A stretch of 64,000 nt of DNA from the NCBI GenBank assembly GCA_965223415.1, contig OZ245002.1:1504001-1568000 (forward strand), written 5' to 3'. Of this stretch, positions 7,180 to 47,255 are shown piece by piece (position 1 is the stretch's first letter; every line of letters starts with the position of its first letter). Position numbers and translations under genes: made by a program. The notes under the pieces were generated by a model that did no database searches, had not been told where the DNA came from, and worked only from the letters and a program-made list of their open reading frames with translations. This stretch comes from Myxococcota bacterium (GTDB taxonomy: Bacteria > Myxococcota_A > UBA9160 > UBA6930).

Positions 7180-7220
7180 AGAAGCGGGGCCAGAGCTCAG
7201 CTCTGGCCCCGCTTCTTCAT
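7176..7220. repeat. Perfect palindrome (family A), 22-bp arms with 1-nt centre
   Basis: ATGAAGAAGCGGGGCCAGAGCT-C-AGCTCTGGCCCCGCTTCTTCAT; homologous to 22713-22790. Confidence 0.9.
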
Positions 7221-8039
7221 CTGGACGGCTTGCTGGACGTCGCCCGCGGCCGCAGCGAGGAGCTTCCGGGCGGTGGCTTCGTCGACCTCGGCGAGGGTCG
7301 CGACGATGCGGACCGCGCGCTGCTGGAGCTTGCGCGAGGCCGGGTTCAGGTTCGTCATCAGGTTGCCCTCGACGCGGCCGAGCCGGACCATGACCGTGGT
7401 CGAGAGCAGGTGCAGCACCATCTTCTGGGCGAGGCCACCCTTCATGCGGGTGGAGCCGGCGATCACTTCCGGACCGACCACGGGAGCGATCGCCACCTCC
7501 GCGGCCTGGGCCAGGGGCGAGCCTGGATCGCAGGTGATGGCGATGCGCCGGGCCCCGGCAGCTCTCGCGGCCTCGAGCCCGCCCAGGGCGAAGGGCGTGC
7601 GACCGCTCGCCGAGAGCGCGACCACCGCGTCGCCGGGCATGAGCCCGCGCTCGGCGAGCGTGCGTCGCGCGTCGTCGGCCACGTCCTCCGCGCCTTCGAC
7701 CGCGCGCTCGAGGGCCGAGGCCCCCCCCGCCATCACTCCCTGCACCCGGTCGGCCGGGTAGCCGAAGGTGGGCGGGATCTCCGACGCGTCGAGGACGCCG
7801 ATCCGCCCGCTGGTTCCGGCGCCGACGTTGAACCAACGCCCGCCACCCGTGAGGGAAAGCGCGAGGGCGTCGACCGCCCGCTCGATCTCGTCCAGCACCC
7901 GGCCCACCGCGCGAACCGCATGCAGGTCCTGGCGATGGATCGCCTCCAGCACCTCCCGGGTGCTTCGCCGGTCGAGGTCGCGGGTCTCCTCGAGGACCTT
8001 CTCGGTGAGGAGCTCGTCCGAAGGCGAAGGGCGGGCCAT
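7197..8039 (-). CDS. murQ: N-acetylmuramic acid 6-phosphate etherase
   Basis: GAGTSGRIGVLDASEIPPTFG, AVEGAED, GPEVIAGSTRMKGG, GNLM..KL motifs; start set at MARPSPSDELLTE. Confidence 0.93.
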   Translation of the reverse strand: MARPSPSDELLTEKVLEETRDLDRRSTREVLEAIHRQDLHAVRAVGRVLDEIERAVDALALSLTGGGRWFNVGAGTSGRIGVLDASEIPPTFGYPADRVQGVMAGGASALERAVEGAEDVADDARRTLAERGLMPGDAVVALSASGRTPFALGGLEAARAAGARRIAITCDPGSPLAQAAEVAIAPVVGPEVIAGSTRMKGGLAQKMVLHLLSTTVMVRLGRVEGNLMTNLNPASRKLQQRAVRIVATLAEVDEATARKLLAAAAGDVQQAVQMKKRGQS

Positions 8040-10464: not shown

Positions 10465-10590
10465 GTCATCTACCGACCGGTAGGTAAACGTTTTCCACGG
10501 CAATAGAACGGACGTTCCTCCGGAGCCGGAATTGGATGCCAGGATCCAATTTTTCTTTTTGGAATCCAGCAGTTTCGCGTTTTCTCCCGT

Positions 10591-10607
10591 TCGGCACGAG
10601 GCTTGCT
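10591..10607 (+). promoter_or_regulatory. Sigma54 -24/-12 promoter of the PEP-CTERM gene
   Basis: TCGGCACGAGGCTTGCT (GG-N10-GC), preceded by an AT-rich tract at about 10548-10560. Confidence 0.75.
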
Positions 10608-10647
10608 GAACACCGGGTCGAATCACTTTCCTGGGGAGGAAATCCAG

Positions 10648-11298
10648 TTGGCTCTTCTACGGCATGTGGGACTCGCCGGCGCCGCGCTGCTCCTGTTGAG
10701 CGCGTCGGCCGGTGCCGCGACCATCGACTTCCGCTCGGGCGGTCCGTCGATCTTCCTCGACGGAACCGGCATCCAGGTCACCGTCAGCGGCTGGGGGGGC
10801 TCGAACGACCCCCAGAACCTGATCGACCCCAACAACCCGGTGGCCTCCGGGCTCACCAATCTGGGAACGAACGTCGGCGGCTCCGGCGTATTCGGAACCC
10901 TCGGCGTCGGATGCGGCATCGCCCAGTGCGACCTCATCCTGCCCGCCGGTGAGGACGCGCTGCTGCTCTCGTTCAACACCACGGTCACGATCGACGCGGT
11001 GATCGGCGCCGCCATCGAGGATCCGGACGACATCAGCGTCTGGTCGTGGAACGGCTCGTCCTGGACGCAGGTGGGCTCGGACAGCTGCAGCACCTTCAGC
11101 TTCTGCGGCGGCGAGGAGCCGCTCTCGGGCTTCATCGGACCGACCCAGCACCTGCTGGTCGTGGCGGAGAGCTCCGGCGCCAGCGCCTTCCGGCTTGCCG
11201 AGCTGACCAACGTCGTGGACGTCCCGGAGCCTGGCGCGCTCGGCCTGCTCGGCCTCGGCGGGTTCGGTCTGTACCGCGCAGGACGGCGGCGGGACTAG
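10648..11298 (+). CDS. PEP-CTERM sorting-domain exported protein
   Basis: GGGGAGGA RBS then TTG; signal peptide; C-terminal VPEPGALGLLGLGGFGLYRAGRRRD. Confidence 0.88.
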   Translation: MALLRHVGLAGAALLLLSASAGAATIDFRSGGPSIFLDGTGIQVTVSGWGGSNDPQNLIDPNNPVASGLTNLGTNVGGSGVFGTLGVGCGIAQCDLILPAGEDALLLSFNTTVTIDAVIGAAIEDPDDISVWSWNGSSWTQVGSDSCSTFSFCGGEEPLSGFIGPTQHLLVVAESSGASAFRLAELTNVVDVPEPGALGLLGLGGFGLYRAGRRRD

Positions 11299-11321
11299 GC
11301 GCCCAACACCGGACCGGGTTC

Positions 11322-11358
11322 GAGCGGCCTCCGGGGGGGGTGCACCCGGGGGCCGCTC
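11322..11358. terminator. GC-rich hairpin between convergent genes
   Basis: GAGCGGCCTCCGGG ... CCCGGGGGCCGCTC stem; no strong U-tract. Confidence 0.5.
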
Positions 11359-11363
11359 TGCGT

Positions 11364-12695
11364 TCAGAGAGACTCCGCCAACGCGTCCGCAGCCCGCTGA
11401 CCGCTCGCCACCGCGCCCTCCACCGTCGGAGCGACCAGGTGATCGCCGGCGTAGACGAGGCGGCGCCCCTGGGCGAGCCGATCGGCGACGACGTCGCGCA
11501 GACGGGCGAGCTCCCGGTAGCGGCCGACGTCGAAGCGCGGGAGCGCGTGCGGATGGCGCAGGACCCGGGTGAAGCGCAGGGCCGCTCCCGCGCGGGGCAG
11601 GACCCGCGCCAGGGAGCCCACCAGCGTCTTCTCCACTGCGTCGTCGGGCGCGTCGAAGTGGGCCCGGCTCCAGGCGGCCGTCGCCACGAGCACGGCCCGC
11701 TCACAGCCCTCGGGAGCCGCCTCGCTCCCGGCTCCGCCGGGCTCGACCGCGAGGCTGGCCACCGGCCGCCGCTCGTCGGGGCGGAAGCGGTAGCGCGAGG
11801 CCTTGCCGGCGAAGCTTCCTTCGAGGCCGGCCACGAGCACCAGCGCAGGCTCCGAGCCGCCGGCTTCGAAGCACTCGCGCTCGGCGTGGACGAGCAGCGA
11901 GTCAGCCAGCGGCACCACGCTCTCTGCTGGCGTCGCGATCACGACGCCGTCCGCCTCGAGCGTGCACTCGGTCCCGTCCTGCTCGAAGACGATCCGGAAG
12001 CCGCCGGCGATCGCCTCGACCGCCCGGGCTCGCGCGCCGAAGCGATCCGCCGGATCCACCAGGGCGCCCGCCAGCCGTGCGAAGCTCCCGCGCAGCGTGC
12101 CCACGGGCGCCTCGTTGCGCGCGAGATGGTGGAGGACGAACAGCAGCCGGCTCGCCTCGTCGGGATCCGCCAGCAGGTCGCCGCCGACCAGCGGCGCGGC
12201 CCAGTGTTCGAGCGCGCTGGGGCCGAAGTAGAGGCGGACGAAGTCGGCGACGCTGCGATCGTCGAGCCGCACCGCCGGGAGCGGATCCGCCGGGTCGAGC
12301 AGATGGGCGAACTTCGCCAGGAGCCGGGGAAGGCGCCGGAGCCGGAGCGCGTCTCGCCAGCGCACCCCGGGCATGCGCGCGATCCCGAGCGTCCGCGAAG
12401 GCTCGATCGGGACGGCGGCGCCGCCGCTCACCTGGAACAGCCGCTCGGGTCGCAGGGGCAGGAGCTCCGCGCCGAGGCCCGCTTCGGCCACGAGCCCGGC
12501 GAGGGCGGCGTCGCGGGCGGAGACCGCGTGGGCACCGCCGTCCCAGGCGAAGCCGTCCTGCTCGCCTCCAACGGCCCGCCCGCCGGGGCCGGGCGCCGCC
12601 TCGAGGAGGGTCACCTCGCACCCGCCCGCCCCCAGGCGCCGGGCGGCCGCGAGGCCCGCCAGGCCTCCTCCCACGACGACGACCCGAGAACGCAC
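11364..12695 (-). CDS. FAD-dependent oxidoreductase, amine oxidase / HemY-like family
   Basis: VVVVGGGLAGLAAA..LLEA..GGR; C-terminal AGDH..VEGAVASG. Confidence 0.8.
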   Translation of the reverse strand: MRSRVVVVGGGLAGLAAARRLGAGGCEVTLLEAAPGPGGRAVGGEQDGFAWDGGAHAVSARDAALAGLVAEAGLGAELLPLRPERLFQVSGGAAVPIEPSRTLGIARMPGVRWRDALRLRRLPRLLAKFAHLLDPADPLPAVRLDDRSVADFVRLYFGPSALEHWAAPLVGGDLLADPDEASRLLFVLHHLARNEAPVGTLRGSFARLAGALVDPADRFGARARAVEAIAGGFRIVFEQDGTECTLEADGVVIATPAESVVPLADSLLVHAERECFEAGGSEPALVLVAGLEGSFAGKASRYRFRPDERRPVASLAVEPGGAGSEAAPEGCERAVLVATAAWSRAHFDAPDDAVEKTLVGSLARVLPRAGAALRFTRVLRHPHALPRFDVGRYRELARLRDVVADRLAQGRRLVYAGDHLVAPTVEGAVASGQRAADALAESL

Positions 12696-12775
12696 CCGAC
12701 CTCCCTGCCTCCCACCCGTCCGGAGGCTCCCTGCGGGGGCCGGAAGCGGCCCGGCGCCGTTATAGCAGCCCGGGC

Positions 12776-12800
12776 GAACCAGGTCCGCGGGGGCCGCGTA
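12776..12800 (+). promoter_or_regulatory. ECF-type promoter, probably autoregulatory
   Basis: GAACC-N16-CGTA, 12 nt upstream of the first ATG of the ECF sigma gene. Confidence 0.6.
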
Positions 12801-12812
12801 CTACGCCCAGAG

Positions 12813-13472
12813 ATGATGGAGCTGGCTCTCTCGACCCCGGCAGCCGCCACCCTTCCGGCGCTGCGCCTCCCGGCGGCGGCCGCGCGGCCGGCGCGGCGGT
12901 GGCACAGGGCGGCTTTGATACCGTCGGCCGCAGTGACGTCGGACGAAGACCTGATGGTCCAGGTCCAGGCGGGCGACGAGGCGGCCCTCGAGACCCTGAT
13001 GGGCCGCTACAAAGGCCCGCTGTTCGGCTTCCTCAACCGTCGGGTCGGCTCCTCCGCCGCCGACGACCTGTTCCAGGAATCCTGGATCCGGGTGGTGAAG
13101 GCCCGCGACCGCTTCGACCCGCGGCGGCGCTTCTCCACGTGGCTGTTCCAGATCGCGAACAACCTGTGCCGGGATCGCGGCCGCCACCTGCTGGTCGAGG
13201 CGCGCTACCGGGATCGGGTGAAGGGCGAGGCCCGGGCCGAGCCGGCTCCCCGCAGCGCGACGCCGCCGGGTGCCGAGCGGATCGACATGCAACGGCACCT
13301 GGCCGCCCTGCCGGATCCCCTGCGCGAGATCCTGGTGCTTCGCTACTACCAGGACCTCTCGGAGCGGGAGATCGCCGAGGTGCTGGGCATTCCGCGGGGA
13401 ACCGTGAAGAGCAGGGCGCACGCCGCGGTGAAGGCCCTGCGGAAGCAGGTGGAGGATGGGACCGATGCGTGA
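12813..13472 (+). CDS. ECF RNA polymerase sigma factor (alternative start GTG 12933)
   Basis: SDEDLM, ADDLFQE, FSTWLFQIANNLCRD, EIAEVLGIPRGTVKSR. Confidence 0.92.
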   Translation: MMELALSTPAAATLPALRLPAAAARPARRWHRAALIPSAAVTSDEDLMVQVQAGDEAALETLMGRYKGPLFGFLNRRVGSSAADDLFQESWIRVVKARDRFDPRRRFSTWLFQIANNLCRDRGRHLLVEARYRDRVKGEARAEPAPRSATPPGAERIDMQRHLAALPDPLREILVLRYYQDLSEREIAEVLGIPRGTVKSRAHAAVKALRKQVEDGTDA

Positions 13473-13887
13473 GCCCCGGGACGAGCTCGAGCGGGCGCTG
13501 GCCGAGCTGGCAGCGGAGCTCGACCGCTACGAGGTGGCGGAGCCCAGCGACGCGCTGGTCTCCGCCACCCTGGAGCGGTCGAGCGCTCTGCTCCGCGGGC
13601 CCGTGCCGACACCGCGGCATGCCGCGATTCCCACCGGCTTCAAGCGCGAGCTCACCCGGCTGCTGGCCGCCGCGGCGGTGCCGCTCGTGCTCGTCGTCGC
13701 CTGGAATGCGTTCGTGCTGCTGAACGCCCCCGAGTGGCTCGCCACCTGGCTCCCCGCCTCCCTGGCCTGGGCCCTGCCCGCCGCCTACGTGCTGGGGGCT
13801 GCCGGCTGGCTCGCCCTCGTCTTCGGCAGTCTTCCCCTCGTCGCCCACCGGCGCGCCTGGCAGCGCCACCGAGAGGCCCTTTCATGA
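13465..13887 (+). CDS. Membrane protein with 2 TM helices, putative anti-sigma factor
   Basis: Overlaps the ECF stop codon; short soluble N-terminus followed by two hydrophobic helices. Confidence 0.65.
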   Translation: MREPRDELERALAELAAELDRYEVAEPSDALVSATLERSSALLRGPVPTPRHAAIPTGFKRELTRLLAAAAVPLVLVVAWNAFVLLNAPEWLATWLPASLAWALPAAYVLGAAGWLALVFGSLPLVAHRRAWQRHREALS

Positions 13888-14231
13888 TCGAGAGCAAGCT
13901 GTGTCCCTACTGCGCCGAGGAGGTGCGGTCCGAGGCCATCAAGTGCAAGCACTGCGGCTCCTTCCTGCGCACGCGGAGCTCCACCTCCGATTGGTTCCGC
14001 ACCGCGGACGATCGCATGGTGGCCGGTGTGTGCGGTGGCCTGGCCGTGCAGTTCGGCGTGCCCACCGCCATCGTGCGATTGGCCTTCGTGCTGATGACGC
14101 TCTTCATGGGCGGAGTGGGCATCGTGATCTACGCGGTGCTGTGGGTGGTGATGCCCCTCGACGACTGGGCCGACGAGGTGGACACGGCCCGCCGCGAGCG
14201 CTTCGGCGAGCCACCCGAGTACCGGGGCTAG
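13884..14231 (+). CDS. Zinc-ribbon / PspC-domain protein
   Basis: ATGA coupling; CPYCAE..KCKHCG followed by DRMVAGVCGGLA..VRLAFV..YAVLWVVMP (PspC). Confidence 0.88.
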   Translation: MIESKLCPYCAEEVRSEAIKCKHCGSFLRTRSSTSDWFRTADDRMVAGVCGGLAVQFGVPTAIVRLAFVLMTLFMGGVGIVIYAVLWVVMPLDDWADEVDTARRERFGEPPEYRG

Positions 14232-14291
14232 GAAACGAAGTGTTGCCACCCTCCTGGCAGTAGCGGGCCAGAGCCGCGATAGGCTCTCCCC

Positions 14292-15007
14292 ATGAGCGAC
14301 ACCTTCCCTCCCGCCCAGCCCCACGAGCCCCCGCGCGAGATCCTCCCGGACGTGCTCTTCGTGCACGGGACCATGCGCATGGGACCGGGCATGACCATCA
14401 ACCGCAACATGGTCGCGCTGCGCCACGAGGGCGAGCTGACGCTCCTGAATCCGGTGCGCCTCTCGGCGGAAGGCGAGGCGGCCCTCGAGGCGTTCGGCAC
14501 GGTGCAGCATGCGGTTCGGCTCGGCTGCATGCACAGCCTGGACGATCCCTACACGGTGAAGCGCTTCGGCGCGCGCTTCTGGTGCGCGCCGGGAGCCGAC
14601 GCCGGCCTCGAGCCGAAGCCGGACGCGCTGCTCGAGGCGAGCGCGGAGCTGCCGATCCCCGGGGCCGAGCTGTTCACCTTCCGCGGCGTCCAGAAGCCGG
14701 AGTGCGCCGTGCTCTTCCGGCGCGCCGATCTCCTCGTCACCTGCGACGCGGTCCAGCACTGGGAGAGCACCTCGGGCTGCTCGCTGCTCGGCAAGCTCGC
14801 CTGTCACGCCATGGGCTTCCTGCACCCGGCCAACATCGGACCGCCCTGGCGGCGGATCCAGACGCCGAAGGGAGGCTCGCTCGAGAGCGAGTTCGAGCGG
14901 CTCTCCTCCCTGGGGTTCGAGAACTGGTCGGCGCACACGGCCAGCCGCTCCTGGGCGGCGCGAGCCGGGCGCTGGCGGAGACGGTGACCCGCGTCTACGG
15001 CGCCTGA
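14292..15007 (+). pseudogene. DUF4336 / metallo-beta-lactamase-like protein with an apparent 1-bp frameshift near 14924
   Basis: RNMVALR..LNPVRL..G.V.H.VRLG.MH motifs. The natural C-terminus LVGAHGQPLLGGA...VYGA* lies in another frame. Confidence 0.6.
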
Positions 15008-15042
15008 ACCACAGACGCCGACCCGCGTCTACGGCGCCTGAA
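14986..15042. repeat. 23-bp direct repeat, 2 copies with an 11-bp spacer
   Basis: GACCCGCGTCTACGGCGCCTGAA at 14986-15008 and 15020-15042. Confidence 0.9.
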
Positions 15043-17653
15043 GCCGGGCCGAGAGGCACTCCAGCCCTTCGATCACGTCGTGGAGATCGTCGAAGGGCTC
15101 GAAGGCGATGCCGCGGGTGCCGAGCTCCTCGGCCAGGGTGTCCTTGGCGAAGACGACATCGGCGGCCTCGCTGGCGCACAGGTCGGAGACGCGGCCGTTG
15201 CCCACGTGCACGACGGTGGCCTTCGGGTGGTGGCGGCGGAAGAGCTCGATGCGGCCGCGCTTGCACACGCCGGTACCGCAGCGGCAGCTGGCGTCCGGCG
15301 CACCCGGAGCCAGGCGCCAGCGCCCGTCCTCGTACCAGAGGTGGTTGGCGTCGTAGGCGAAGCGCACGCCGTGGAGCTCCTGGAGCCGGTCGAGGTTGCG
15401 GTCGAAGCCGTCCGAGAGCACCCGGAAGGGCACGCCCCGCTCCTCGCACCAGGCCACCAGGGCGTGGGCGCCGGGCATGGGCTCGATCGTCTTCAGAAAC
15501 GCGTCGAGCCGCTCCTCGGGGAGGTCGAGGCCGTCGAGCAGCTCCATGTTGTACTGCCAGGCGCTGAGCTCGCCGCGGGTGAGCCGCTCCCAGAGCGCGG
15601 CGCGCCCGTCGCTCGCCCAGGTCTTGGCGATGGTCGAGCCGACGTCCTGGACGGCGAAGGTGCCGTCGTAGTCGCAGAAGACGGCGAGGGGAACGTCCCG
15701 TGAGAAGCGAAGCAGGGACGACTCGTGGGGTGCAAGCCGGAGTGCTCCTTCCTTGGGCTGGGCACCGGCGAGGGGCTCGGGCTGCGCGAGCCCGGCGCGC
15801 TCGTGCAGCTCCTCCGCAGCGCGCTCGCGGCTCTCGTCGCCGGCGTTCAGGGCGTAGAGCCAGATCGTGTCCGCGCCCCGTGCCACCGCACCCGTGGCGA
15901 TCTCGCCCTCGGTGAGGCCGGTGGCCCGCACGGCGCCCTGGGCGCCGGCGGCGTCGATCTCCCGGGCCAGGGCGAGGGTGCTCCGAACGCGCACGAGGTC
16001 GTCGTCGGCGAGGGAAGGAAGGTCGTCCGAGACGACGGTCAGGCCGCCGGTCACCGCGATCGCGCCGGCCAGGGCCTCCACCTCGGCCGGGCTCAGCTCG
16101 GTGTCGCGGCTGCGAGCCATCAGGCAATCCGGGTCGTTGATCCACAGCCGGCGGTGCATCCAGGCCCGGGCCAGGATGCTGCGCAGGGCGCCGCGGGTGC
16201 TGGGCAGCGCCTCCTCGATCCCCGGCGGCGCACCGGGCGGCGGCTCCCAGTGGGGCGCCACGTCGGGGCCGATGCGCATGGCGTCGACCACGCCCACGGC
16301 CGCGCCGAGGGGACATCCGCAGCCGAGCAGGAACGCCTCGTCGCCGGCGCCGCGCCGGATCGCCTCGAGGCCGCGGCGCAAGCGGGCGGCGCGGGTAAGC
16401 GTGGGATCGGCGGCCACGGCCTGCATGGCGGCGACGTAGAGGAAATCGAGCTTCAGGTAGCGGAAGCCCATGCCGGCCAGGGCCGCGAAGGTGCGCAGCA
16501 GGTGCTCCGTCACCTCGTCCCGGCTCGGGTCGAGGGCATGCACCCAGCCGTGCTTCGTCCAGGCCGGGTGGAGCAGGCCGCGATGGGGACCGCCCTCTTC
16601 GCCGTGGCTCCCGAGCAGCCACTCCGGATGGGCCCGGAACAGGTGGCTCTCTCCGACGACGCAGAAGGGCGCGGTCCAGATGCCGGGCCGGAAGCCGGCG
16701 GCGCGGATCTCCGCGGCCAGGGGCGCGATGCCGCGCGGGAACTTCTCGTTCGTCTCGAGCCAATCACCGATCGCGTGCTGGTAGCCGTCGTCGAGCTGCA
16801 CCACGTCGACGGAGAAGCGGGAGCGCAGGCCGGAGAGCGCCTCCAGGTTGCGCAGCAGGTCCCGCTCGGTGACGTCGTGGAAGAACTGGTACCAGCTGCA
16901 CCAGCCCGTCGGCAGCGGCGCGCCGGTGCGGGCCCCTCCGCGCCGCCCGAGCTCCTCCGCATAGCGCTCGAGGAGCACGTTCTCGTCGTCGCCGAGCAGG
17001 ACGAGTGCGGGCTCGATCTCGAGGGCGGCGCCCGGATCGAGCGGGACCTCGAGCTGGATCTCGAGCTCCACCCGCACGCCCTGCGCGTCACGCTTCCAGT
17101 AGACGAGACCGCTCCCGAGCCCGGCCTCGAGCAGGCCGACGAGACACGCCCGACCCTGGCCGTCGCAGGCGACGGAGACGAGGGACGACTCGTGCCAACC
17201 GCTGCGGTCCGGCGGCGCCTCGCCGAGCGGGTGATGGAGACCGCGCAGCCAGGGCCCGGACGGAAAGGGAGGCTCGCCCGCCTCGTCGAGGGCGCGGCCG
17301 CCGGTGAACGACCAGGACTGCCATCCGTTCTTCAGGAAGCGCAGGGCATGGGTGTCCGCGCCACTCCAGCGGAAGCCCAACACCACGGACTCGAGATGGA
17401 GCGGCACGTCGGCGAGGTTGCGCACCGAGAGCTGGAGCTCCGCCCGCTCGCCGGCCAGATCCGCCGCGAGGCCCAGCTCGAAGGCGCCGAAGTGCTGGGC
17501 CCCGGCGGCCAGGCGACCCTCGGCCCACTCCAAGGGACCCGCGACCCCGTGCTCGCTACGGTCCGGGAGCCCCTGGGCGTAGCGCACGCCGAGCCGCACC
17601 GGCTCCAGGCGCCCGGCACGCTCGTCCCGGGCGATGGAGACGGCACGGCTCAT
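15029..17653 (-). CDS. GH36 alpha-galactosidase-like enzyme fused to a C-terminal MtnX-like HAD phosphatase
   Basis: NGWQSWS, GWCSWY, QLDDGYQ, YLKLDF, MRIGPDV, NDPD; then FCDYDGT, LSDG, CRCGTGVCK, VGNGRVSDLCA..VFAK. Confidence 0.85.
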   Translation of the reverse strand: MSRAVSIARDERAGRLEPVRLGVRYAQGLPDRSEHGVAGPLEWAEGRLAAGAQHFGAFELGLAADLAGERAELQLSVRNLADVPLHLESVVLGFRWSGADTHALRFLKNGWQSWSFTGGRALDEAGEPPFPSGPWLRGLHHPLGEAPPDRSGWHESSLVSVACDGQGRACLVGLLEAGLGSGLVYWKRDAQGVRVELEIQLEVPLDPGAALEIEPALVLLGDDENVLLERYAEELGRRGGARTGAPLPTGWCSWYQFFHDVTERDLLRNLEALSGLRSRFSVDVVQLDDGYQHAIGDWLETNEKFPRGIAPLAAEIRAAGFRPGIWTAPFCVVGESHLFRAHPEWLLGSHGEEGGPHRGLLHPAWTKHGWVHALDPSRDEVTEHLLRTFAALAGMGFRYLKLDFLYVAAMQAVAADPTLTRAARLRRGLEAIRRGAGDEAFLLGCGCPLGAAVGVVDAMRIGPDVAPHWEPPPGAPPGIEEALPSTRGALRSILARAWMHRRLWINDPDCLMARSRDTELSPAEVEALAGAIAVTGGLTVVSDDLPSLADDDLVRVRSTLALAREIDAAGAQGAVRATGLTEGEIATGAVARGADTIWLYALNAGDESRERAAEELHERAGLAQPEPLAGAQPKEGALRLAPHESSLLRFSRDVPLAVFCDYDGTFAVQDVGSTIAKTWASDGRAALWERLTRGELSAWQYNMELLDGLDLPEERLDAFLKTIEPMPGAHALVAWCEERGVPFRVLSDGFDRNLDRLQELHGVRFAYDANHLWYEDGRWRLAPGAPDASCRCGTGVCKRGRIELFRRHHPKATVVHVGNGRVSDLCASEAADVVFAKDTLAEELGTRGIAFEPFDDLHDVIEGLECLSARLQAP

Positions 17654-18596
17654 GGCGGCCGAGGATAACAAGAGCCTCCGGGCGCGATTCGCGCGCCGCG
17701 AACGCGCACTGGTGCTGGACGGCGCGACGGGCACCGAGCTGGAGCGGCGCGGTGCGCCCTGCGCGTTGCCGCTCTGGTCGACGGGCGGCCTGCTGAGTTC
17801 GCCGGATCTCGTCCGCGAGATCCACGCCGACTACGCGCGGGCCGGCTGCGACCTGCTCACCGCGGCGACCTTTCGCACCCAGGGGCGGGTGCTCGCGCAG
17901 GTCGGTCTCGGCGGGAGGGCGGCCTCCTTGACCACACTGGCAGTGCGGCTCGCACGGGAGGCGGGCCCGGACCGGACGGTGCTCGGCTCCGCGCCACCCC
18001 TGGAGGATTGCTACCACCCGGAGCGCGTCCCGGCGGACGACGCCCTCGCCCGCGAGCACGAAGAGCACGCGGGGCACCTGGCGACCGCGGGCGCCGACGG
18101 AATCCTGGCCGAGACCCACAACACCGCCCGGGAGGCCAGGGCGGCGGCGCGGGCGGCGGGCGCGGTGGGCCTGCCGGTGTGGGTGAGCTTCGTGTGCGAC
18201 GGATCGGGTCGCCTGCTCTCGGGTGAGCCTCTCGAAGCCGGGCTCGAGGCGGTGGCCGGGGAGGCGCCTCTCGGTGTGGGCGTGAACTGCCTGCCCGCCG
18301 ATGCGGTGGACGCGTGCCTGCCCGTGCTGGAGGCGAGCGGCCTCCCCTTCCTGGTCTCTGCCAACCTGGGTGCGCCGGTCGAGGGCGCACCAAGCGGCCG
18401 CAGCGACCCGCTCGGCCCCGACGAGCTCGCGGCGCGCGCACGGGGCTGGATCGAAGCCGGCGCCGAGATCGTCGGCGGATGCTGCGGAACGAGACCGGAG
18501 CACCTCGCCGCCCTCGCCCGTCTCGTGGCCGCGCACGGGCCGCGCATCGGGACGGCAGCGGATGCGCAGCTCAATTCGGGGCACGGTCGCCGGTGA
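17652..18596 (+). CDS. Homocysteine S-methyltransferase family protein
   Basis: LDGATGTEL, IHADYARAG, GVNC, IVGGCCG zinc ligands. Confidence 0.9.
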   Translation: MAAEDNKSLRARFARRERALVLDGATGTELERRGAPCALPLWSTGGLLSSPDLVREIHADYARAGCDLLTAATFRTQGRVLAQVGLGGRAASLTTLAVRLAREAGPDRTVLGSAPPLEDCYHPERVPADDALAREHEEHAGHLATAGADGILAETHNTAREARAAARAAGAVGLPVWVSFVCDGSGRLLSGEPLEAGLEAVAGEAPLGVGVNCLPADAVDACLPVLEASGLPFLVSANLGAPVEGAPSGRSDPLGPDELAARARGWIEAGAEIVGGCCGTRPEHLAALARLVAAHGPRIGTAADAQLNSGHGRR

Positions 18597-18612
18597 CCCA
18601 AATTGTGTCACC
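18592..18612. promoter_or_regulatory. Dyad operator, candidate enhancer-binding-protein site
   Basis: GGTGACCCAAATTGTGTCACC, near-perfect inverted repeat about 120 bp upstream of a sigma54 -24 box. Confidence 0.6.
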
Positions 18613-18720
18613 CGGCTCCTCTCGGCCGGCGTGAGACGCGCGCCGCGGATGCGCAGCTCCGCCCGCAACCGACCAGCCCGCGGGCCCGCACGAGGGAGCG
18701 TGGGCCGGCCCCCCCGCCGA

Positions 18721-18736
18721 TGGCACGTGCCTTGCT
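18721..18736 (+). promoter_or_regulatory. Consensus sigma54 -24/-12 promoter with no credible downstream CDS
   Basis: TGGCACGTGCCTTGCT, an exact match to TGGCACG-N4-TTGCW. Confidence 0.8.
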
Positions 18737-18744
18737 TTCTCATG

Positions 18745-18828
18745 GTTTCCAGCACGTTCTTGGCGCCCGGGCCGGCTACCCCTCCCCTCGTGCTTGCACG
18801 AGGAGTCGACCCGGGCGCTTTTCTCTTT
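18745..18828 (+). ncRNA. Candidate sigma54-dependent small regulatory RNA (~80 nt)
   Basis: Starts about 12 nt after the -12 box. Stem GCGCCCGGG/CCCGGGCGC, inner CGGCU/AGUCG, ACCCCUCC bulge, apical CCUCGUG-CUUG-CACGAGG, then UUUUCUCUUU. Confidence 0.6.
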
Positions 18829-18834
18829 CCGCGC

Positions 18835-20076
18835 TCAGGACCGGTAGCGGGGCTCGGGCACCGCGTGCAGCACCCATGCGACGGCCGCGAGCTGGAAGGC
18901 GATCGCCGTCCAGAAGACCGCCTCGTAGGAGACGGTGGCCGCCAGCACGCCGCCGACCAGCGGTCCGAGGGCGCCGACGAGCTCGCTGGCGGAGTTGGCG
19001 ACGGCGATGCGCATGGGGAGGTTCTCGCGGCTGCCGAACTCGAGCACCAGGTTCTGGGACGCCATCTGGAAGCCGCCAAAGCCGGCGCCCAGGCCGAGCA
19101 TGATCAGCACGAGCACCGCGGGCTCGTCGCCGGCGGTCATCAGGGCCAGAGCCGCCCCGACCCACAGCAGCAGGGACGCGATGAAGATCGCGCGGAAGCC
19201 GGTGCGGTCGGCGATCTCCCCCCAGGCCAGGTTTCCCATGCTCCAGGAGAGCAGGAACGCCATCGTGAGCGGGCCGAGCATGGCGGGGCCGGCGTCCGCG
19301 TAGAGCACGTAGAACGGCACGGACATCCGGCCCATCGTCGCGAGAGCGCGCGCCAGGAAGTAGCGGGTGAAGGCGGGGTCGCTTCGAAGGAGCGCGGGCA
19401 GCTCCGTGAGCCGACTGCCCACGCGGCTGGCACTGCGAACGCTCGGCGACTCCGGCTCGCGGATGAACGCGAGCATGGAGAGGCCGAGGGCGGTGAGCGC
19501 GAACGAGAGCAGGAAGGTCGCGGCGTAGCCGTTGCCGAGGGCGCCGATCTCGACCAGGTGGCCACCGACGCCGCCCACCGCCACCGCGGTGATTCCCGCC
19601 AGCGCGTTGCGCAGCCCCATCAGGCGTCCGCGGCGCTCGATGGGGATCACCTTCGACACCAGGGTGCTGAAGATCACCCCCTGCATGCCCATGAAGAAGC
19701 CGAACAGCGCCAGGATGGCGCAGATCGCCACCAGCGCGGGGGTGCCCGAGAGGAAGAACCCGACCAGCGCCAGGCCCAACACCTGGACGCGCATCAGACC
19801 GCCGATCCAGAAGCCCATCGGCAGGACGCGGCGACGATGCTCGATGGCGGTGGCGCCGAGCACTGGCGAGAGGAACATGCCCAGGGATTGGAAGGCGCGC
19901 GCTGCGCCGACGGCGATCGGCGTGCCGGCAATCAGCTCCACGTACATCGGGATGAAGGTCGGCGCCTGGATCAGGCGGAAGCCGGTCTGGCCCAGGAGAC
20001 CGTGGGCCAGGTGCGCGAGGTAGTTGCGACGCAGGTGGCGCTGGGCCTCGGCCTGGAAGCGCTCCTCGTCGTTCAC
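18835..20076 (-). CDS. MFS transporter
   Basis: About 12 hydrophobic helices; WGEIADRTGFR motif; GTG start overlapping the folC stop. Confidence 0.85.
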   Translation of the reverse strand: MNDEERFQAEAQRHLRRNYLAHLAHGLLGQTGFRLIQAPTFIPMYVELIAGTPIAVGAARAFQSLGMFLSPVLGATAIEHRRRVLPMGFWIGGLMRVQVLGLALVGFFLSGTPALVAICAILALFGFFMGMQGVIFSTLVSKVIPIERRGRLMGLRNALAGITAVAVGGVGGHLVEIGALGNGYAATFLLSFALTALGLSMLAFIREPESPSVRSASRVGSRLTELPALLRSDPAFTRYFLARALATMGRMSVPFYVLYADAGPAMLGPLTMAFLLSWSMGNLAWGEIADRTGFRAIFIASLLLWVGAALALMTAGDEPAVLVLIMLGLGAGFGGFQMASQNLVLEFGSRENLPMRIAVANSASELVGALGPLVGGVLAATVSYEAVFWTAIAFQLAAVAWVLHAVPEPRYRS

Positions 20077-21380
20077 GGCGCGAGCACGGCGCGGGCGATG
20101 CCGGCCAGGTACATCGAGCCCGTGGCGCACAGGAGATCGTCGGGCCCGGTCTCGGCCGACGCGCGGGCGAGCGCTTCGCGGGGATCCTCGACGCTGCGTA
20201 CGTCCGCCTGGGGAAGAGCCCGGCGCAGCTCGGCGCCCAGGGTCTCGGGCGCGAGCGAGCGCACCGGCTCGGCGCGGGTGGCGTAGAAGACGTCACCTTG
20301 GTCGCCGAGGGCACGGGCGATCGCGTCCAGGTCCTTGCCGGCGGAGACGGACACGACGAAGCGTCCCCGCCGATGGGGCATGTGCGCCAGGGCGTCGGCG
20401 AGGGCCCGGGCAGAAGCCGCGGTGTGGGCGCCGTCGACCACGATCCACGGCCGCTCCGAGAGGATCTCGATCCGCGCGGGCAGGCGGGCCGCCGCGAAGG
20501 CGCGCGGGGCGGCTTCGGCCAGACGCTCCAGCGGCAGCGCCTCCAAGCGCTTGACGCACGCCAGGGCGAGGGCAGCGTTCACGGCCTGATGGGCACCGGG
20601 CGTCGCGAGCTCGGCGCGAAGCTCGAGCTCCCCGTCGCGCACGTGCAGGCGCACGCGCGGCCCCTTCGTCTCGCCGACCTCGAGGAAGAAGTCCCGGCCC
20701 AACGCGACGAGGGGAGCGCCGACCTCGCTACAGCGCGCGCGCACCACCCGCGCCGCCTCCTCCGGCAGCCGGCCCATGACGAGCGGCACCCCGGGCTTCG
20801 CGATGCCCGCCTTCTCGGCGGCGATCGCAACCAGCGTGCTCCCGAGCTTTTCCGTGTGCTCGAGCTCGATGCTCGTGACGCAGGTGACCGCCGGCGCCAC
20901 CGCGTTGGTCGAGTCGAGGCGTCCGCCGAGACCCACCTCGAGGATCGCCACGTCCACCCCTGCCTCCGCGAAGAGCAGGAGTGCCGCCGCGGTCGTGACG
21001 TCGAAGAAGCTGGGCGCGTCCGGTTGTCCGCGCAGCGCCATGACCGGCTCGCGCAGCGTCGCCACCGCCGCTCCGAGGCGCGCGCCGGAGACCGGCGTGC
21101 CACCCAGCCGGAAACGCTCCGTCCAGCTCTCGAGATGGGGCGAGGTGAAGGTCCCCACCTCCAACCCGGTCTCCCGCAACAGGGCCTCGGCGAAGAGCGC
21201 CGTCGAGCCCTTGCCCTTGGAGCCGGCCACGTGGAGAATGCACAGGCCGTCCTGGGGATTGCCGAGCGCCTCGAGCAGCTGCGTCACCGGGGCGAGGGAG
21301 AGGCGTGCGCGGCGCAGGTCGGGCATGCGCTCGACGTTGATCAGCCCGGCCAGCCAGGCCTCCGCCTCCTCCCCGGTCAT
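20073..21380 (-). CDS. folC: Folylpolyglutamate synthase / dihydrofolate synthase
   Basis: HVAGSKGKGST, FTSPHL, EVGLGGRLDSTN, EKAGI, VDGAH, TGSMYLAG. Confidence 0.95.
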   Translation of the reverse strand: MTGEEAEAWLAGLINVERMPDLRRARLSLAPVTQLLEALGNPQDGLCILHVAGSKGKGSTALFAEALLRETGLEVGTFTSPHLESWTERFRLGGTPVSGARLGAAVATLREPVMALRGQPDAPSFFDVTTAAALLLFAEAGVDVAILEVGLGGRLDSTNAVAPAVTCVTSIELEHTEKLGSTLVAIAAEKAGIAKPGVPLVMGRLPEEAARVVRARCSEVGAPLVALGRDFFLEVGETKGPRVRLHVRDGELELRAELATPGAHQAVNAALALACVKRLEALPLERLAEAAPRAFAAARLPARIEILSERPWIVVDGAHTAASARALADALAHMPHRRGRFVVSVSAGKDLDAIARALGDQGDVFYATRAEPVRSLAPETLGAELRRALPQADVRSVEDPREALARASAETGPDDLLCATGSMYLAGIARAVLAP

Positions 21381-21486
21381 GGGGCCCTCCACCCTCTTCG
21401 ACGTCCTACGACGTCTCCCGTGGCTCCAACGCAACGAGGCGGCCCGTGCTCGGACCGCCTCGTGGAACTCCGATCGATCGGCGCGT

Positions 21487-21813
21487 CTACTGCACCATGT
21501 ACTTCTTCCACGAGCGATAGTTCTTGACCGCCGTGCTGGTGCTCTCGACCGCCGGGTAGTAGTAGCGCACCGCGTGGCCGCAGGTATCGCAGATCCTGTA
21601 ACAGAACTTGAACCCGTCGACTTCGCGGACCTGCCCGACCGAGGTGCGGTTCTCGTCGGTGCAGCAGCGCGAGGGCTGCGTGGGCGACACGATCTTCTTC
21701 GGGTAGTCGTTCTTCGGCTTCTCGTCGTCCGAGTAGCGGATGATGTTCTTGACGATGCGGTTCTTCTTGTCATCCGCGTTCTGCTTCCGAATGTTGCTGC
21801 CGATCCGTCTCAA
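21487..21813 (-). CDS. Small Lys/Tyr-rich hypothetical protein with Cys cluster (108 aa)
   Basis: GAGGA RBS then TTG overlapping the NRDE stop; G/C-ending codons; RCCTD...FCYRICDTCGH. Confidence 0.75.
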   Translation of the reverse strand: MRRIGSNIRKQNADDKKNRIVKNIIRYSDDEKPKNDYPKKIVSPTQPSRCCTDENRTSVGQVREVDGFKFCYRICDTCGHAVRYYYPAVESTSTAVKNYRSWKKYMVQ

Positions 21814-22601
21814 GACAGGTTCCTCGTCATGGCCCCGGGAAGCGTGCCGGCCGTCCGGTCCAGCTCGCCCAGGAGCGGGGTCAAGTCTTCGTAGCTCGCC
21901 GTGCACGGCGCACCGTTCGCGTAGAGGAGGCGGTCCCCTTCGCGCCGGCGACCGCGCACGAACAAGGTGGAGCTGCGGGTGCCGTAACCTCCCGCATGGA
22001 TGCAAGTGGCCTCGAAGGGCGTCCGGGTGTCGCCTTCGGGCACGTGCATGCGCAGGATGTGTGCAAGTGCGTCGAGCACGCCCTCGGAGCTGCCGGCGGC
22101 GACCGGCTCGAGCTCCCCCATCAGGCGGCCGACCTTGGGGTGGGCGGCATCGTTCGGGTCGGCGTTGCCGATCACGTGGGGGCCCGGGGCCAGCTTCTCG
22201 GCGCGGGCGCCGCTCTCGAGCACGACCGCGTAGGCGGTCAGGCCGTCGGCCACGAACAGGTTGCACGGGTTGTGGGCGTCCCGAGGCAGCCCGACGAGCT
22301 GCTCCATGGCCTCCTTCGCGCTGGGCGCCGCCAGGACGTCGGTGACGAGATGGCCCCGGGAGCGGCGGGAGGAATCGGGGCTCGGACAGGGCCGATTCGT
22401 GAGCGCGGCGAACACGCCGGCGTCGTTCATGCCGAGCCAGGTGCCGCCCTCCCGCAAGTCCCGCGGCGCAAGCACGACGCGCTCGCCCTCCCGGCGCAGG
22501 CCGGGGCCTGCCGCGGGGCGGTCGTGGTACTCGTCCCGGTTGGCAGCGATCACGAGCGGCGCATCCGGGAAGCAGCGGTGGAGTGCCAGAAGGGTGCACA
22601 T
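21810..22601 (-). CDS. NRDE / TANGO2 family protein
   Basis: MCTL..IAANRDE, GGTWLG, ALTN, YGTRSST. Confidence 0.92.
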   Translation of the reverse strand: MCTLLALHRCFPDAPLVIAANRDEYHDRPAAGPGLRREGERVVLAPRDLREGGTWLGMNDAGVFAALTNRPCPSPDSSRRSRGHLVTDVLAAPSAKEAMEQLVGLPRDAHNPCNLFVADGLTAYAVVLESGARAEKLAPGPHVIGNADPNDAAHPKVGRLMGELEPVAAGSSEGVLDALAHILRMHVPEGDTRTPFEATCIHAGGYGTRSSTLFVRGRRREGDRLLYANGAPCTASYEDLTPLLGELDRTAGTLPGAMTRNLS

Positions 22602-22673
22602 GCGGGGAGGGTCTCGGCGCCGCCTCGCCGGGCCCCCGGGAGGGCTGAGCGGGCAGCTGACACGAGAGCCGAC

Positions 22674-22701
22674 AAGCTAGCGAAATTCCCCCGGGGGTCA
22701 A
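22674..22701 (-). promoter_or_regulatory. Possible sigma70 promoter for the NRDE operon
   Basis: TTGACC-N16-TAGCTT on the minus strand. Confidence 0.45.
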
Positions 22702-22712
22702 GCCGCCCGCCA

Positions 22713-22790
22713 GAATGAAGAAACGGGGCCGGAGTTAAGAATTCAGTTCTTGAGAACTGAATTCTTAACTCCGGCCCCGTTTCTTCATTC
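22713..22790. repeat. Perfect palindrome (family A), 38-bp arms with 2-nt centre
   Basis: GAATGAAGAAACGGGGCCGGAGTTAAGAATTCAGTTCT-TG-exact reverse complement. Confidence 0.92.
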
Positions 22791-22793
22791 CGG

Positions 22794-24137
22794 CTAGGCA
22801 CCGACGACCTTGAGATGGGCTCCCTTGGCGGCTCCGCCGGGGGATTCCTTCTTGCTCACGCGCCAGCCGCGGGCGGCGCGGAGGCGGCTGGCGCGGCGGC
22901 GGGCCGTGGTGCGGTTCATCTCGAGGCCGTAGCGGCCGAGCACCTCGGAGAGCTCGTCGAAGTTGTTCTCGATCGAGACGCGCACGCTCTCGAAGCCCTC
23001 GCGGATCGCGTCGGCGCGCTTCCAGAAGGCGAGCGGGTTCATGCCGAAGAACTCCGCGTCGTGCTCGCGCGGCTCGAGCAGCACGATATCGCCCTTGAAG
23101 CGGGTGTCGCTCAGGTAGCGCTGCAGGGCGGCGCGCAGACGCGAGTGGAGCAAGGTGCGGAACACCTGGTTGATCACGCTGAGCATGCCGTGATCCGCCA
23201 GCGGCGCGCCCGCCGCGAAGTGTTCCTCGTCGTCCAGTCGGTTCAGGAACGGCCGGAACGGGTTGTAACAGATGATCAGGTCGGCGCCCTTCTCGATCGC
23301 CACGTCGATGTTCGCCGTGTTTCGGATGCCGCCGTCGATGTAGTCGACGCCGCCGATGCGAGCGGGGCGGAAGAAGAGCGGAAGCGCCGTGGAGGCCTGT
23401 ACCGCCTTGGAGATGGACACGTCCGCCTTCTCGTCGGGGCCGAAGACGACGCGTTCGGCGGTGTCGAGGTCGCAGGCGGCCACGTAGAGCTTCTTGCCGA
23501 ACTCGCTCTCGAAGGCGCGGAAGTCGTTGGGCGCGCCCATCCGTTCCAGGCTCCGGCGCAGCCAGCCCTCGAGCCGGCTGTTGTCGAAGAGGCCGGTCGG
23601 AACGTGGCTGAACAGCGACGGCACCTCACGCCGCGGCGAGACGTGCTCGATGAGCCGCATCGCCACCTCCTCGGCGCGGGTGTAGCTGGGCTTCTCGGCC
23701 AGCTTCCTCAGAGAGGGTCCGATCACCGAAGGGAGATCGGGAATCTGGCGCGTCAGCTCGAGGGCCACGCTCGGCGCGTAGGTGAGCACGTCGACCAGGA
23801 ACCGCGTCGGCCGGGACAGGAACTCACCGATGTTCGGGTTGTAGAAGTGGTGGGGCGCAAGCTGCTCGAGCTTGGTGCTCGTCCCCTCGAGCACCTTGAT
23901 CATCTCGTCGGGCTTCAGCCCGCCGGCGAGGGAGACCGCCAGGATCGAGCCGGCTGAGAGGCCGATGTAGGTGTCCAGGTCGGAGATGCGGCGATCGACG
24001 AGGTAGTCGTCGAGGGCCTTGAGGCCCCCCACCTTGAAGGCACCGCCAGAGACCGCACCGCCCGCGAGGACCAGGGCGACCTTCGGGTTCGCCTTGCGGC
24101 GGGTGCCGGTGCTCTTGCGAATCAGCGTCAGACCCAC
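22794..24137 (-). CDS. Cytoplasmic patatin-like phospholipase
   Basis: LAGGAVSGG, GLSAG, ASTALP, YIDGG. Confidence 0.88.
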   Translation of the reverse strand: MGLTLIRKSTGTRRKANPKVALVLAGGAVSGGAFKVGGLKALDDYLVDRRISDLDTYIGLSAGSILAVSLAGGLKPDEMIKVLEGTSTKLEQLAPHHFYNPNIGEFLSRPTRFLVDVLTYAPSVALELTRQIPDLPSVIGPSLRKLAEKPSYTRAEEVAMRLIEHVSPRREVPSLFSHVPTGLFDNSRLEGWLRRSLERMGAPNDFRAFESEFGKKLYVAACDLDTAERVVFGPDEKADVSISKAVQASTALPLFFRPARIGGVDYIDGGIRNTANIDVAIEKGADLIICYNPFRPFLNRLDDEEHFAAGAPLADHGMLSVINQVFRTLLHSRLRAALQRYLSDTRFKGDIVLLEPREHDAEFFGMNPLAFWKRADAIREGFESVRVSIENNFDELSEVLGRYGLEMNRTTARRRASRLRAARGWRVSKKESPGGAAKGAHLKVVGA

Positions 24138-39709: not shown

Positions 39710-39712
39710 GAA

Positions 39713-39782
39713 CGCAAGAGTGGGGACGTTCCTTGCAACTTGCGCATCTGCGCAAGTTGCAAGGAACGTCCCCACTCTTGCG
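39713..39782. repeat. Perfect palindrome (family B), 34-bp arms with 2-nt centre
   Basis: CGCAAGAGTGGGGACGTTCCTTGCAACTTGCGCA-TC-exact reverse complement. Confidence 0.92.
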
Positions 39783-39784
39783 GT

Positions 39785-47093: not shown

Positions 47094-47255
47094 TCGAGGC
47101 GCTCCGATTGGGCTCCGCTCCCAACCGCGGGGAGGGGGTCAATGGCTCTCTTCGGCGAACCCGGCGCGTCACCGGACTCGTTTTTCCGGGTACGCTCGGC
47201 GATGCGCAACATGGCACCGAAGTCGGCTTCCAAGCTGCGATAAGCTCGCCGGATC

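Follow-up and report, generated by a model that had tools for sequence, protein, structure and literature searches.

Between two convergent genes in a 64,000-nt stretch of the genome of a Myxococcota bacterium (contig OZ245002.1, positions 1,504,001 to 1,568,000; "the window" below is this whole stretch) lies a compact candidate RNA gene, in which an exact sigma-54 promoter stands upstream of a long hairpin with an unpaired C-rich bulge and a U-rich tail. It is probably a genuine regulatory RNA, not catalogued until now but of a kind already familiar. Stated in full, the reading favored here is that an enhancer-dependent sigma-54 unit makes an RNA of about 80 nt that pairs through its bulge with G-rich ribosome-binding sites, and to this statement, pairing mechanism included, a probability of roughly 0.6 can be given; that the locus encodes a real, selected, sigma-54-driven RNA is likely. 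The promoter consensus, the fold, the conservation of that fold with covariation and the invariant unpaired motif are established computationally from the sequences, and the independent sigma-54 transcription unit to which they point is well supported in silico. The parts of the unit, in their order along the window, are:

18592-18612, no strand assigned: dyad GGTGACCCAAATTGTGTCACC (GGTGAC-N9-GTCACC), overlapping the TGA stop of the upstream homocysteine S-methyltransferase (HMT) gene; candidate enhancer-binding protein site
18721-18736, plus strand: sigma-54 (-24/-12) promoter TGGCACGTGCCTTGCT, exact TGGCAC-N5-TTGCW consensus
18747-18761, plus strand: predicted single-stranded 5' leader, unpaired in the minimum free energy (MFE) fold, with the start set about 12 nt beyond the C of TTGC
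18762-18819, plus strand: hairpin made of a basal stem, one-sided bulge, apical stem and tetraloop; MFE -39.7 kcal/mol
18762-18777 with 18804-18819, plus strand: basal stem, 16 positions with one C/A mismatch
18778-18785, plus strand: one-sided bulge ACCCCUCC, 8 nt, unpaired, on the 5' side only; candidate anti-Shine-Dalgarno-like (anti-SD-like) seed
18786-18792 with 18797-18803, plus strand: apical stem CCUCGUG/CACGAGG, 7 bp
18793-18796, plus strand: CUUG loop, closed by a G-C pair
18820-18829, plus strand: U-rich tail TTTCTCTTTC directly after the stem, 8 T in 10 nt; putative part of an intrinsic terminator

The promoter lies entirely in intergenic DNA, 125 nt past the HMT stop codon, and is the sole exact match to TGGCAC-N5-TTGCW on either strand of the window, where 0.01 would be expected and where only 1 of 100 shuffled sequences held one. 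With up to one mismatch allowed there are three sites in the window against 0.83 expected, a number reached by 5 of 100 shuffles. Relatives were sought by scanning a genome collection, which does not contain the window's own genome, with the window HMT protein, and this yielded 39 loci. The two best of these, L001 and L002, encode HMT proteins that are 58% and 57% identical to that of the window in the best tblastn segment (57% and 55% over the whole codon alignment), and the remaining loci, from other phyla, do not exceed 46%. In both of the close loci the exact consensus recurs at the orthologous position just downstream of HMT (L001 6997-7012, L002 7083-7098), and it is absent from the other 37 of the 39. 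The three genomes agree at all 11 consensus positions and differ in the N5 spacer (GTGCC, GTCGC and ACGCA). A fixed consensus around a varying spacer is what a working -24/-12 promoter would be expected to show. Transcription usually starts about 12 nt after the -12 element, which is the basis for predicting a start near 18747; the resulting leaders would be about 15, 22 and 57 nt long in the three copies, vary in sequence and have little similarity to one another.

Downstream of this promoter, the predicted hairpin is far more stable than its composition would suggest: its z score lies between -4.1 and -4.4, and none of 200 shuffles folded as well. The bases that follow the window hairpin read UUUCUCUUUC. 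In L001 a run of TTTTT begins 3 nt past the stem, so that a GC-rich stem followed by a U tract on the plus strand, the usual form of an intrinsic terminator, is found in the window and in L001 and in a weaker version in L002. A scan of 17500-20500 for consensus terminators, by a rule that demands a loop of 3-8, returned none. Two of the three copies would consist of one long hairpin, an extra 5' hairpin being seen in L002 alone. The initial annotation of this gap, made from the sequence of the window by itself, had proposed a 21-bp dyad, a perfect sigma-54 promoter, and a long stem with a bulge, a G(CUUG)C tetraloop and a U-rich tail; dyad and promoter are present at 18592-18612 and 18721-18736, and the RNA folds exactly as it had been described.

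Homologous hairpins stand downstream of the promoters in both relatives (L001 7045-7096, L002 7166-7225), and each, folded alone, adopts the same architecture (z scores of -3.2 and -3.1). The three-way alignment holds 23 pairs, with 94.2% of its 69 cells paired. In four of these pairs both partners have changed: the apical stem has two such pairs, at its top, and the basal stem has one at either end. When the 3' partners were slid by 1-3 columns, pairing fell to 33-46% and compensatory pairs to 0-1, and only 6 of 500 column shuffles reached the observed values. RNAalifold independently predicts the same structure with one extra pair. Mean column identity in the hairpin alignment is 82%, against 47-48% at the third codon positions of HMT, a level that amounts to saturation in a genome with about 90% G+C at third positions; given this, and HMT proteins only 55-58% identical, selection on the hairpin is evident. 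The same contrast appears in blastn comparisons of L001 and L002 with the window, in which 19 of 20 high-scoring segment pairs are coding, at 67-79% identity, and the only non-coding one is the hairpin itself (L002 7165-7227 against 18761-18821, 81% over 63 nt, E 3.9e-9). For the L001 hairpin the similarity rests on the alignments and on a covariance model score of 86.6 bits. Thus, the proposal that promoter, stem and dyad would be kept in relatives holds in both of the two relatives, with compensatory changes in the stem and more weakly for the dyad.

The loops of the three copies differ, being CUUG, GAGA and UUCG. These represent three classes of unusually stable tetraloop, and the loop may on that ground be seen as a structural cap and not as a functional sequence. 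The reverse holds for the bulge, whose core CCCCUCC is invariant in all three copies and whose nucleotides have an unpaired probability of at least 0.99 in the window and L001 and of 0.75-0.96 in L002.

Several lines of evidence place the RNA on the plus strand, namely the G.U pairs, the one-sided bulge, the U tract, the promoter and the model score. There are two G.U or U.G pairs in the window hairpin and four in that of L002, which would be A.C mismatches on the other strand, and the covariance model built from the three copies (R1) scores 91 bits on the plus strand against 27 on the minus. A conserved peptide is excluded by the 2-nt difference in loop length together with a leader of about 15-57 nt with little similarity, and a leader or antisense device for a fixed neighbor by the downstream gene, which differs in all three genomes. 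A promoter of its own, a stem with a U tail, a non-coding nature and independence from neighbors are thus all found at this locus, to the extent that computation can find them.

When R1 was run over the window and the 39 loci (492,837 bases), the three training copies scored 85-91 bits; the next match on the plus strand, in locus L030, reached 24.2 bits, lacks CCCCUCC and resembles coding sequence. With the filters off, the next matches in the window were unrelated palindromic intergenic hairpins. A blastn search of the intergenic region against the window gave short chance matches and one 15-nt direct repeat, and a search with 18715-18830 against a plasmid collection gave no match. The proposed genome scan for paralogous hairpins, as far as it covered these bases, found the element to be single copy.

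The dyad upstream of the promoter is its candidate activator site. Its center lies about 145 bp 5' of the predicted start in the window, and about 137-175 bp across the three genomes. Every 19-mer upstream of the promoter in the window was compared with the corresponding stretches of L001 and L002, and the dyad came out as the best-conserved block: its counterparts match at 17 of 19 positions in L001 (6877-6895, GTGACGCGAATTGTGTCAC) and at 13 of 19 in L002 (6925-6943, CGGACGCATTTTGAGTCAC), and the summed match of 30 of 38 was reached by none of 300 shuffles, the maximum of the null being 29. In its 6+6 form, with up to one mismatch, the dyad has two matches in the window against 0.24 expected. 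Taken alone it is unremarkable for the composition of the window, and its weight comes from conservation and not from rarity within the window. These properties fit an enhancer-binding-protein site, and an activator role is suggested on that basis. L001 has in addition a second, weaker dyad-like site at 6934-6952 (GTGACCCGAATCGAGACTC), 57 bp downstream of the first and matching the window dyad at 14 of 19 positions; no counterpart of it turned up in the window. The window dyad is flanked by an exact direct repeat of 15 nt, GCGGATGCGCAGCTC, at 18558-18572 (inside the 3' end of HMT) and 18645-18659 (intergenic); the repeat may be a small duplication and is not conserved in L001 or L002.

Pfam found no sigma-54 activator domain on the open reading frames tested in the window, L001 and L002, and a six-frame scan for activator signature motifs (GAFTGA-like and Walker A) gave no match. 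The transcription unit is called an orphan on this account, no activator gene having been found in the window or at the locus of either relative. The idea of a complete circuit of activator, sigma-54 promoter and small RNA (sRNA) thus stands for the promoter, the structured RNA and the candidate dyad, and does not stand for an activator gene within the three loci.

From these observations we infer that the unit is actually transcribed, where its RNA starts and ends, which site the activator uses, how the RNA pairs and with what class of targets. An activator encoded elsewhere in the genome would bind the GTGAC-N9-GTCAC dyad and, once bound, activate the TGGCAC-N5-TTGCT promoter. Transcription from near 18747 to the U tract behind the hairpin would then yield an RNA of about 80 nt (about 120 nt in L002), and read-through from the upstream HMT gene is probably stopped by this hairpin as well. 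The rigid GC-rich hairpin with its stable tetraloop cap would serve as a scaffold that exposes CCCCUCC on one side. This sequence contains the CCUCC core of the 16S anti-SD and is complementary to GGAGGGG. The analysis as a whole makes pairing of the bulge with G-rich ribosome-binding sites its most likely function: the C-rich bulge would base-pair in trans with GGAGGGG-like Shine-Dalgarno regions and ribosome binding would be blocked.

A number of observations weigh against this reading, in one or another of its parts. All covariation and alignment figures come from three sequences (window, L001 and L002), and their statistics are thin. Four of the 69 cells are unpaired (two in L001, at the base, one in L002 and one in the window), the column-shuffle control is not to be read as a probability, and at the settings used blastn did not report the L001 hairpin as a segment pair. 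The U tract of L002 is weak (TTTGATCGTT, 6 T in 10 nt). On the side of the activator, the distance from the dyad to the GG of the promoter is 112, 120 and 150 bp in the three genomes, with no helical phasing; the 5+5 form of the dyad has two window matches against 1.96 expected, a number reached by 59 of 100 shuffles; the dyad is only weakly kept in L002; and no activator gene lies within the 64-kb window or within 6 kb in the relatives. On the side of the pairing, seeds are more commonly placed in a loop or at a 5' end than, as here, in an internal bulge flanked by strong helices, and G-rich 7-mers complementary to it number dozens in a window of 71.6% G+C, where composition makes them abundant. 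The ribosome-binding sites of HMT are not G-rich in all three genomes, RNAduplex on the syntenic genes gave no consistent pattern, with start codons that are uncertain, and no conserved target was found among the HMT start regions and syntenic genes of the three loci.

These weaknesses on the side of targets lend some weight to an alternative that retains the sigma-54-driven RNA and gives it another partner, so that it would act through a protein or another RNA, as a decoy or sponge, as a mimic of the 16S anti-SD or as a protein scaffold. It is held with low confidence. The motif sits in a constrained 8-nt bulge, it is the whole hairpin and not the motif alone that is conserved, no conserved mRNA target emerged from the window and the syntenic genes, and Myxococcus xanthus, another organism that serves for comparison only, is reported in excerpts of PMC5684412 to be without an hfq homologue. 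Against these points, no candidate protein partner was found, the repeated binding motifs usual in sponge RNAs are missing, and the C-rich unpaired motifs of characterized sRNAs pair with Shine-Dalgarno regions, as excerpts of PMC10746234 and PMC11187230 have it. A special form of this idea, in which the RNA would be a signal-gated mimic of the 16S anti-SD that competes with ribosomes for extended G-rich sites and so reprograms translation globally, fits with the conservation of the whole scaffold and with the unusual placement of the seed in an internal bulge, and is judged unlikely.

The other alternatives concern the locus and not the partner. The RNA might be cis-acting, as a sigma-54-driven leader or attenuator or as a source of antisense transcription into the convergent gene; the GH20 gene of L002 begins on the same strand about 30 nt past the weak U tract, and in the window and L001 the stop codon of the convergent gene lies 6-13 nt beyond the tail. 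This is nevertheless quite unlikely, since the downstream gene and its orientation vary among the three genomes while the RNA is constant, and the U tracts are good in two of the three copies. Alternatively, the hairpin might be nothing other than the intrinsic terminator of HMT, next to a non-functional promoter match. A hairpin with a U tail does lie 166-295 nt past the HMT stop in all three genomes, with no other obvious terminator between HMT and the hairpin, and the only Rfam similarity is to the terminator-like part of ncS54. A terminator would not need the invariant 7-nt bulge sequence, the exact 11-position consensus is kept in three of three genomes across saturated divergence with a varying spacer, and the other intergenic hairpins seen in the window are of a different style, being long perfect palindromes; this makes the terminator explanation very unlikely. 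The initial annotation had itself allowed for a hairpin acting merely as the shared terminator of the two convergent genes, against which the strand-specific features and the differing downstream genes argue. An element acting as DNA, either a palindromic protein-binding site or a REP/MITE-like repeat, is extremely improbable. The basal stem includes the palindrome CCCGGG and the window has other palindromic intergenic repeats, while the G.U pairs, the one-sided bulge, the compensatory changes and the three tetraloops speak for selection at the level of RNA, and the element occurs once in the 492,837 bases scanned.

Long, perfectly palindromic hairpins lie in intergenic regions of the window at 22706-22797, 7177-7226 and 39710-39785; their stems measure about 42, 20 and 36 bp, and the z scores are -16, -7 and -13, respectively. 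The first two share the arm AATGAAGAA[A/G]CGGGGCC[G/A]GAG, which points to a small set of related palindromic elements, or of bidirectional terminators, whose G+C is lower than that of the genome. The candidate RNA hairpin was considered as an ordinary member of this set and rejected, those palindromes being long, perfect and symmetric.

The neighborhood of the RNA gene combines a conserved block with a variable junction. The gap that holds it measures 238 bp and is bounded in the window by:

17634-18596, plus strand: HMT gene (PF02574, E 1.9e-60), TGA stop at 18594-18596
18835-20130, minus strand: MFS transporter gene (PF07690), its 3' end facing the sigma-54 promoter

A synteny block is common to window 8089-24137, L001 3-11083 and L002 2-9984, with the order MutS2, amine oxidase, (melibiase/HAD), HMT, a variable segment, Mur ligase, TANGO2 and patatin. 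What follows the RNA is the convergent MFS gene in the window, the Mur ligase gene, also convergent, in L001 and, in L002, a GH20 gene that runs in the same direction. The site of gene insertion is precisely the interval from the RNA gene to the Mur ligase gene, which holds MFS in the window, GH20 in L002 and no insertion in L001. The intact melibiase/HAD gene is missing from L001, where a similar 0.6-kb remnant persists. In L002 a second small hairpin, GCCCCCC-TATGCT-GGGGGC, is found at 7236-7260 after the weak U tract, in this copy only; it stops 1 nt short of the ATG start codon of GH20, a gene whose G-rich ribosome-binding region it could sequester. By their record titles, L001 comes from the metagenome-assembled genome of an uncultured delta proteobacterium and L002 from that of an uncultured Spirochaetaceae. 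The latter label may reflect an error of classification or binning, as the 71.7% G+C, the gene order and the shared RNA gene of L002 match L001 and the window.

Within the window, one potential target had been singled out in the initial annotation, a PEP-CTERM gene preceded by its own sigma-54 site:

10648 (start): PEP-CTERM gene (PF07589), probable start TTG, Shine-Dalgarno sequence GGGGAGG at 10633-10639

The 7-mer match of the bulge to this GGGGAGG is real, and the regulatory link drawn from it is weak. G-rich 7-mers are abundant, the gene is missing from the syntenic block of both relatives, the pairing would need two nucleotides of the apical stem to be opened, and the dyad upstream of its promoter is not the same. 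The gene does follow a near-consensus sigma-54 site, CGGCACGAGGCTTGCT (10592-10607), one of the three window sites with up to one mismatch, and upstream of this site (window 10500-10660) is an unusually AT-rich stretch with the dyad AATTGGAT-N6-ATCCAATT. The possibility that the PEP-CTERM promoter carries the same dyad as the RNA gene was thereby rejected, and the difference between the two makes a different activator likely. The longest complement of the seed in the window, 9 nt long (GGGGAGGGG, 47129-47137), precedes only an open reading frame of 33 codons and does not go beyond composition, a handful of such 9-mers being expected by rough arithmetic. The region in which it lies (47129-47243) has a very strong G-rich ribosome-binding site, GGGGAGGGGG, 4 nt before the ATG of the 33-codon frame, which ends 12 nt before the gene of an AMP-binding enzyme (47256-48770) and may be a small upstream open reading frame or leader peptide.

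The RNA corresponds to no catalogued family among those searched. Rfam 15 gave no match anywhere in the window at gathering thresholds, and at E up to 10 the region 18400-19000 returned only RF02871 (ncS54, Burkholderia sRNA 54) at 17.5 bits and E 0.27. Membership in ncS54 was rejected, as the score stands against a gathering threshold of 43 bits and the similarity covers only the GC stem and U tail. On L001 and L002, at E up to 1, there was no match at the RNA gene and an irrelevant miRNA model elsewhere, and no description of this RNA was found in the literature searched. The supposition that the RNA was likely unannotated has in this respect been borne out by Rfam, no family of which matches it.

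Among described RNAs, a parallel might first be struck with Pxr, an sRNA of M. xanthus and the Cystobacterineae with a predicted sigma-54 promoter and an upstream enhancer-binding region, which lies directly downstream of the NtrC-like activator gene pxrR (nla19) and forms three stem-loops (excerpts of PMC5684412 and PMC5568312). On that partial account the two share sigma-54 control of an sRNA, partly conserved local synteny and a key loop or unpaired element; the candidate differs in that it follows an HMT gene, has no activator gene nearby and forms one long hairpin. By context and fold it does not belong to the Pxr family, a comparison made by description only. No Pxr-like Rfam match was seen at the RNA gene at E up to 10, the presence of a Pxr model in Rfam 15 being unverified. 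The logic of the circuit, an upstream-bound activator and a sigma-54 promoter driving an sRNA, is likewise that of GlmY/GlmZ, for which sigma-54 control through upstream activator sites (GlrR) is established (PMC3045617), and of the sigma-54-dependent Qrr RNAs, with the response-regulator-type activator LuxO (compare PMC10162802). Neither resembles the candidate in sequence or structure. GlmY acts as a decoy, and the Qrr RNAs are Hfq-dependent RNAs of several hairpins.

For the bulge, the nearest likeness is offered by alpha-r14/NfeR1 of the alpha-proteobacteria, in which an identical anti-SD motif, CCUCCUCCC, is left unpaired while the stems diverge and mRNAs are silenced at the ribosome-binding site, NfeR1 being independent of Hfq and occluding such sites (excerpts of PMC10746234). 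The candidate shares with these RNAs, and with AbcR1/2, as far as the excerpts describe them, a conserved unpaired C-rich anti-SD motif on diverging stems. In those RNAs CCUCCUCCC occurs in each of three hairpins, and sigma-54 does not drive NfeR1; the candidate has a single CCCCUCC in a one-sided internal bulge behind a sigma-54 promoter, and with one hairpin and this motif it falls outside their family. CJnc230 (FlmE) of Campylobacter jejuni is RpoN-dependent, lies just downstream of a protein gene and has a single-stranded putative anti-SD (excerpts of PMC11187230). The likeness thus extends, on that partial description, to sigma-54 dependence, a position 3' of a protein gene and a conserved single-stranded putative anti-SD; the candidate, in contrast, is preceded in intergenic DNA by an exact sigma-54 promoter of its own. 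DapZ and MicL are sRNAs embedded in the 3' ends of genes, with promoters of their own and the terminator of the upstream gene. They parallel the candidate in having the promoter 3' of or within a gene end and in that sRNA and mRNA would share a terminator, and they differ from it in that the candidate promoter is fully intergenic, 125 nt beyond the stop codon. The kind to which the RNA would belong, an enhancer-dependent sigma-54 sRNA with a C-rich seed, is already well known, and no new principle is involved. Less usual are the presentation of the seed in an internal bulge and the conservation of the whole unit across deep divergence in an uncultured lineage.

The sigma-54-dependent sRNAs Pxr, Qrr and GlmY/GlmZ sit at decision points in development, quorum sensing and envelope synthesis, and to our knowledge very few sigma-54-controlled sRNAs are known outside proteobacterial model organisms. 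Against this background, the present locus is a clean candidate, supported by the comparison of genomes, from a lineage that is known through metagenome-assembled genomes alone. With its promoter defined, a candidate site for the activator, a compact fold and a candidate seed of seven bases, it is directly testable, and the covariance model R1 could serve as a query in mapping the family. If the bulge does act as an anti-SD, the RNA would add a sigma-54-driven, apparently single-seed example to the sRNAs with C-rich seeds and would show an internal bulge to be capable of presenting such a seed. Were it instead a global mimic of the anti-SD, a single enhancer-dependent switch would govern a whole class of ribosome-binding sites in an uncultured, probably myxobacteria-like lineage.

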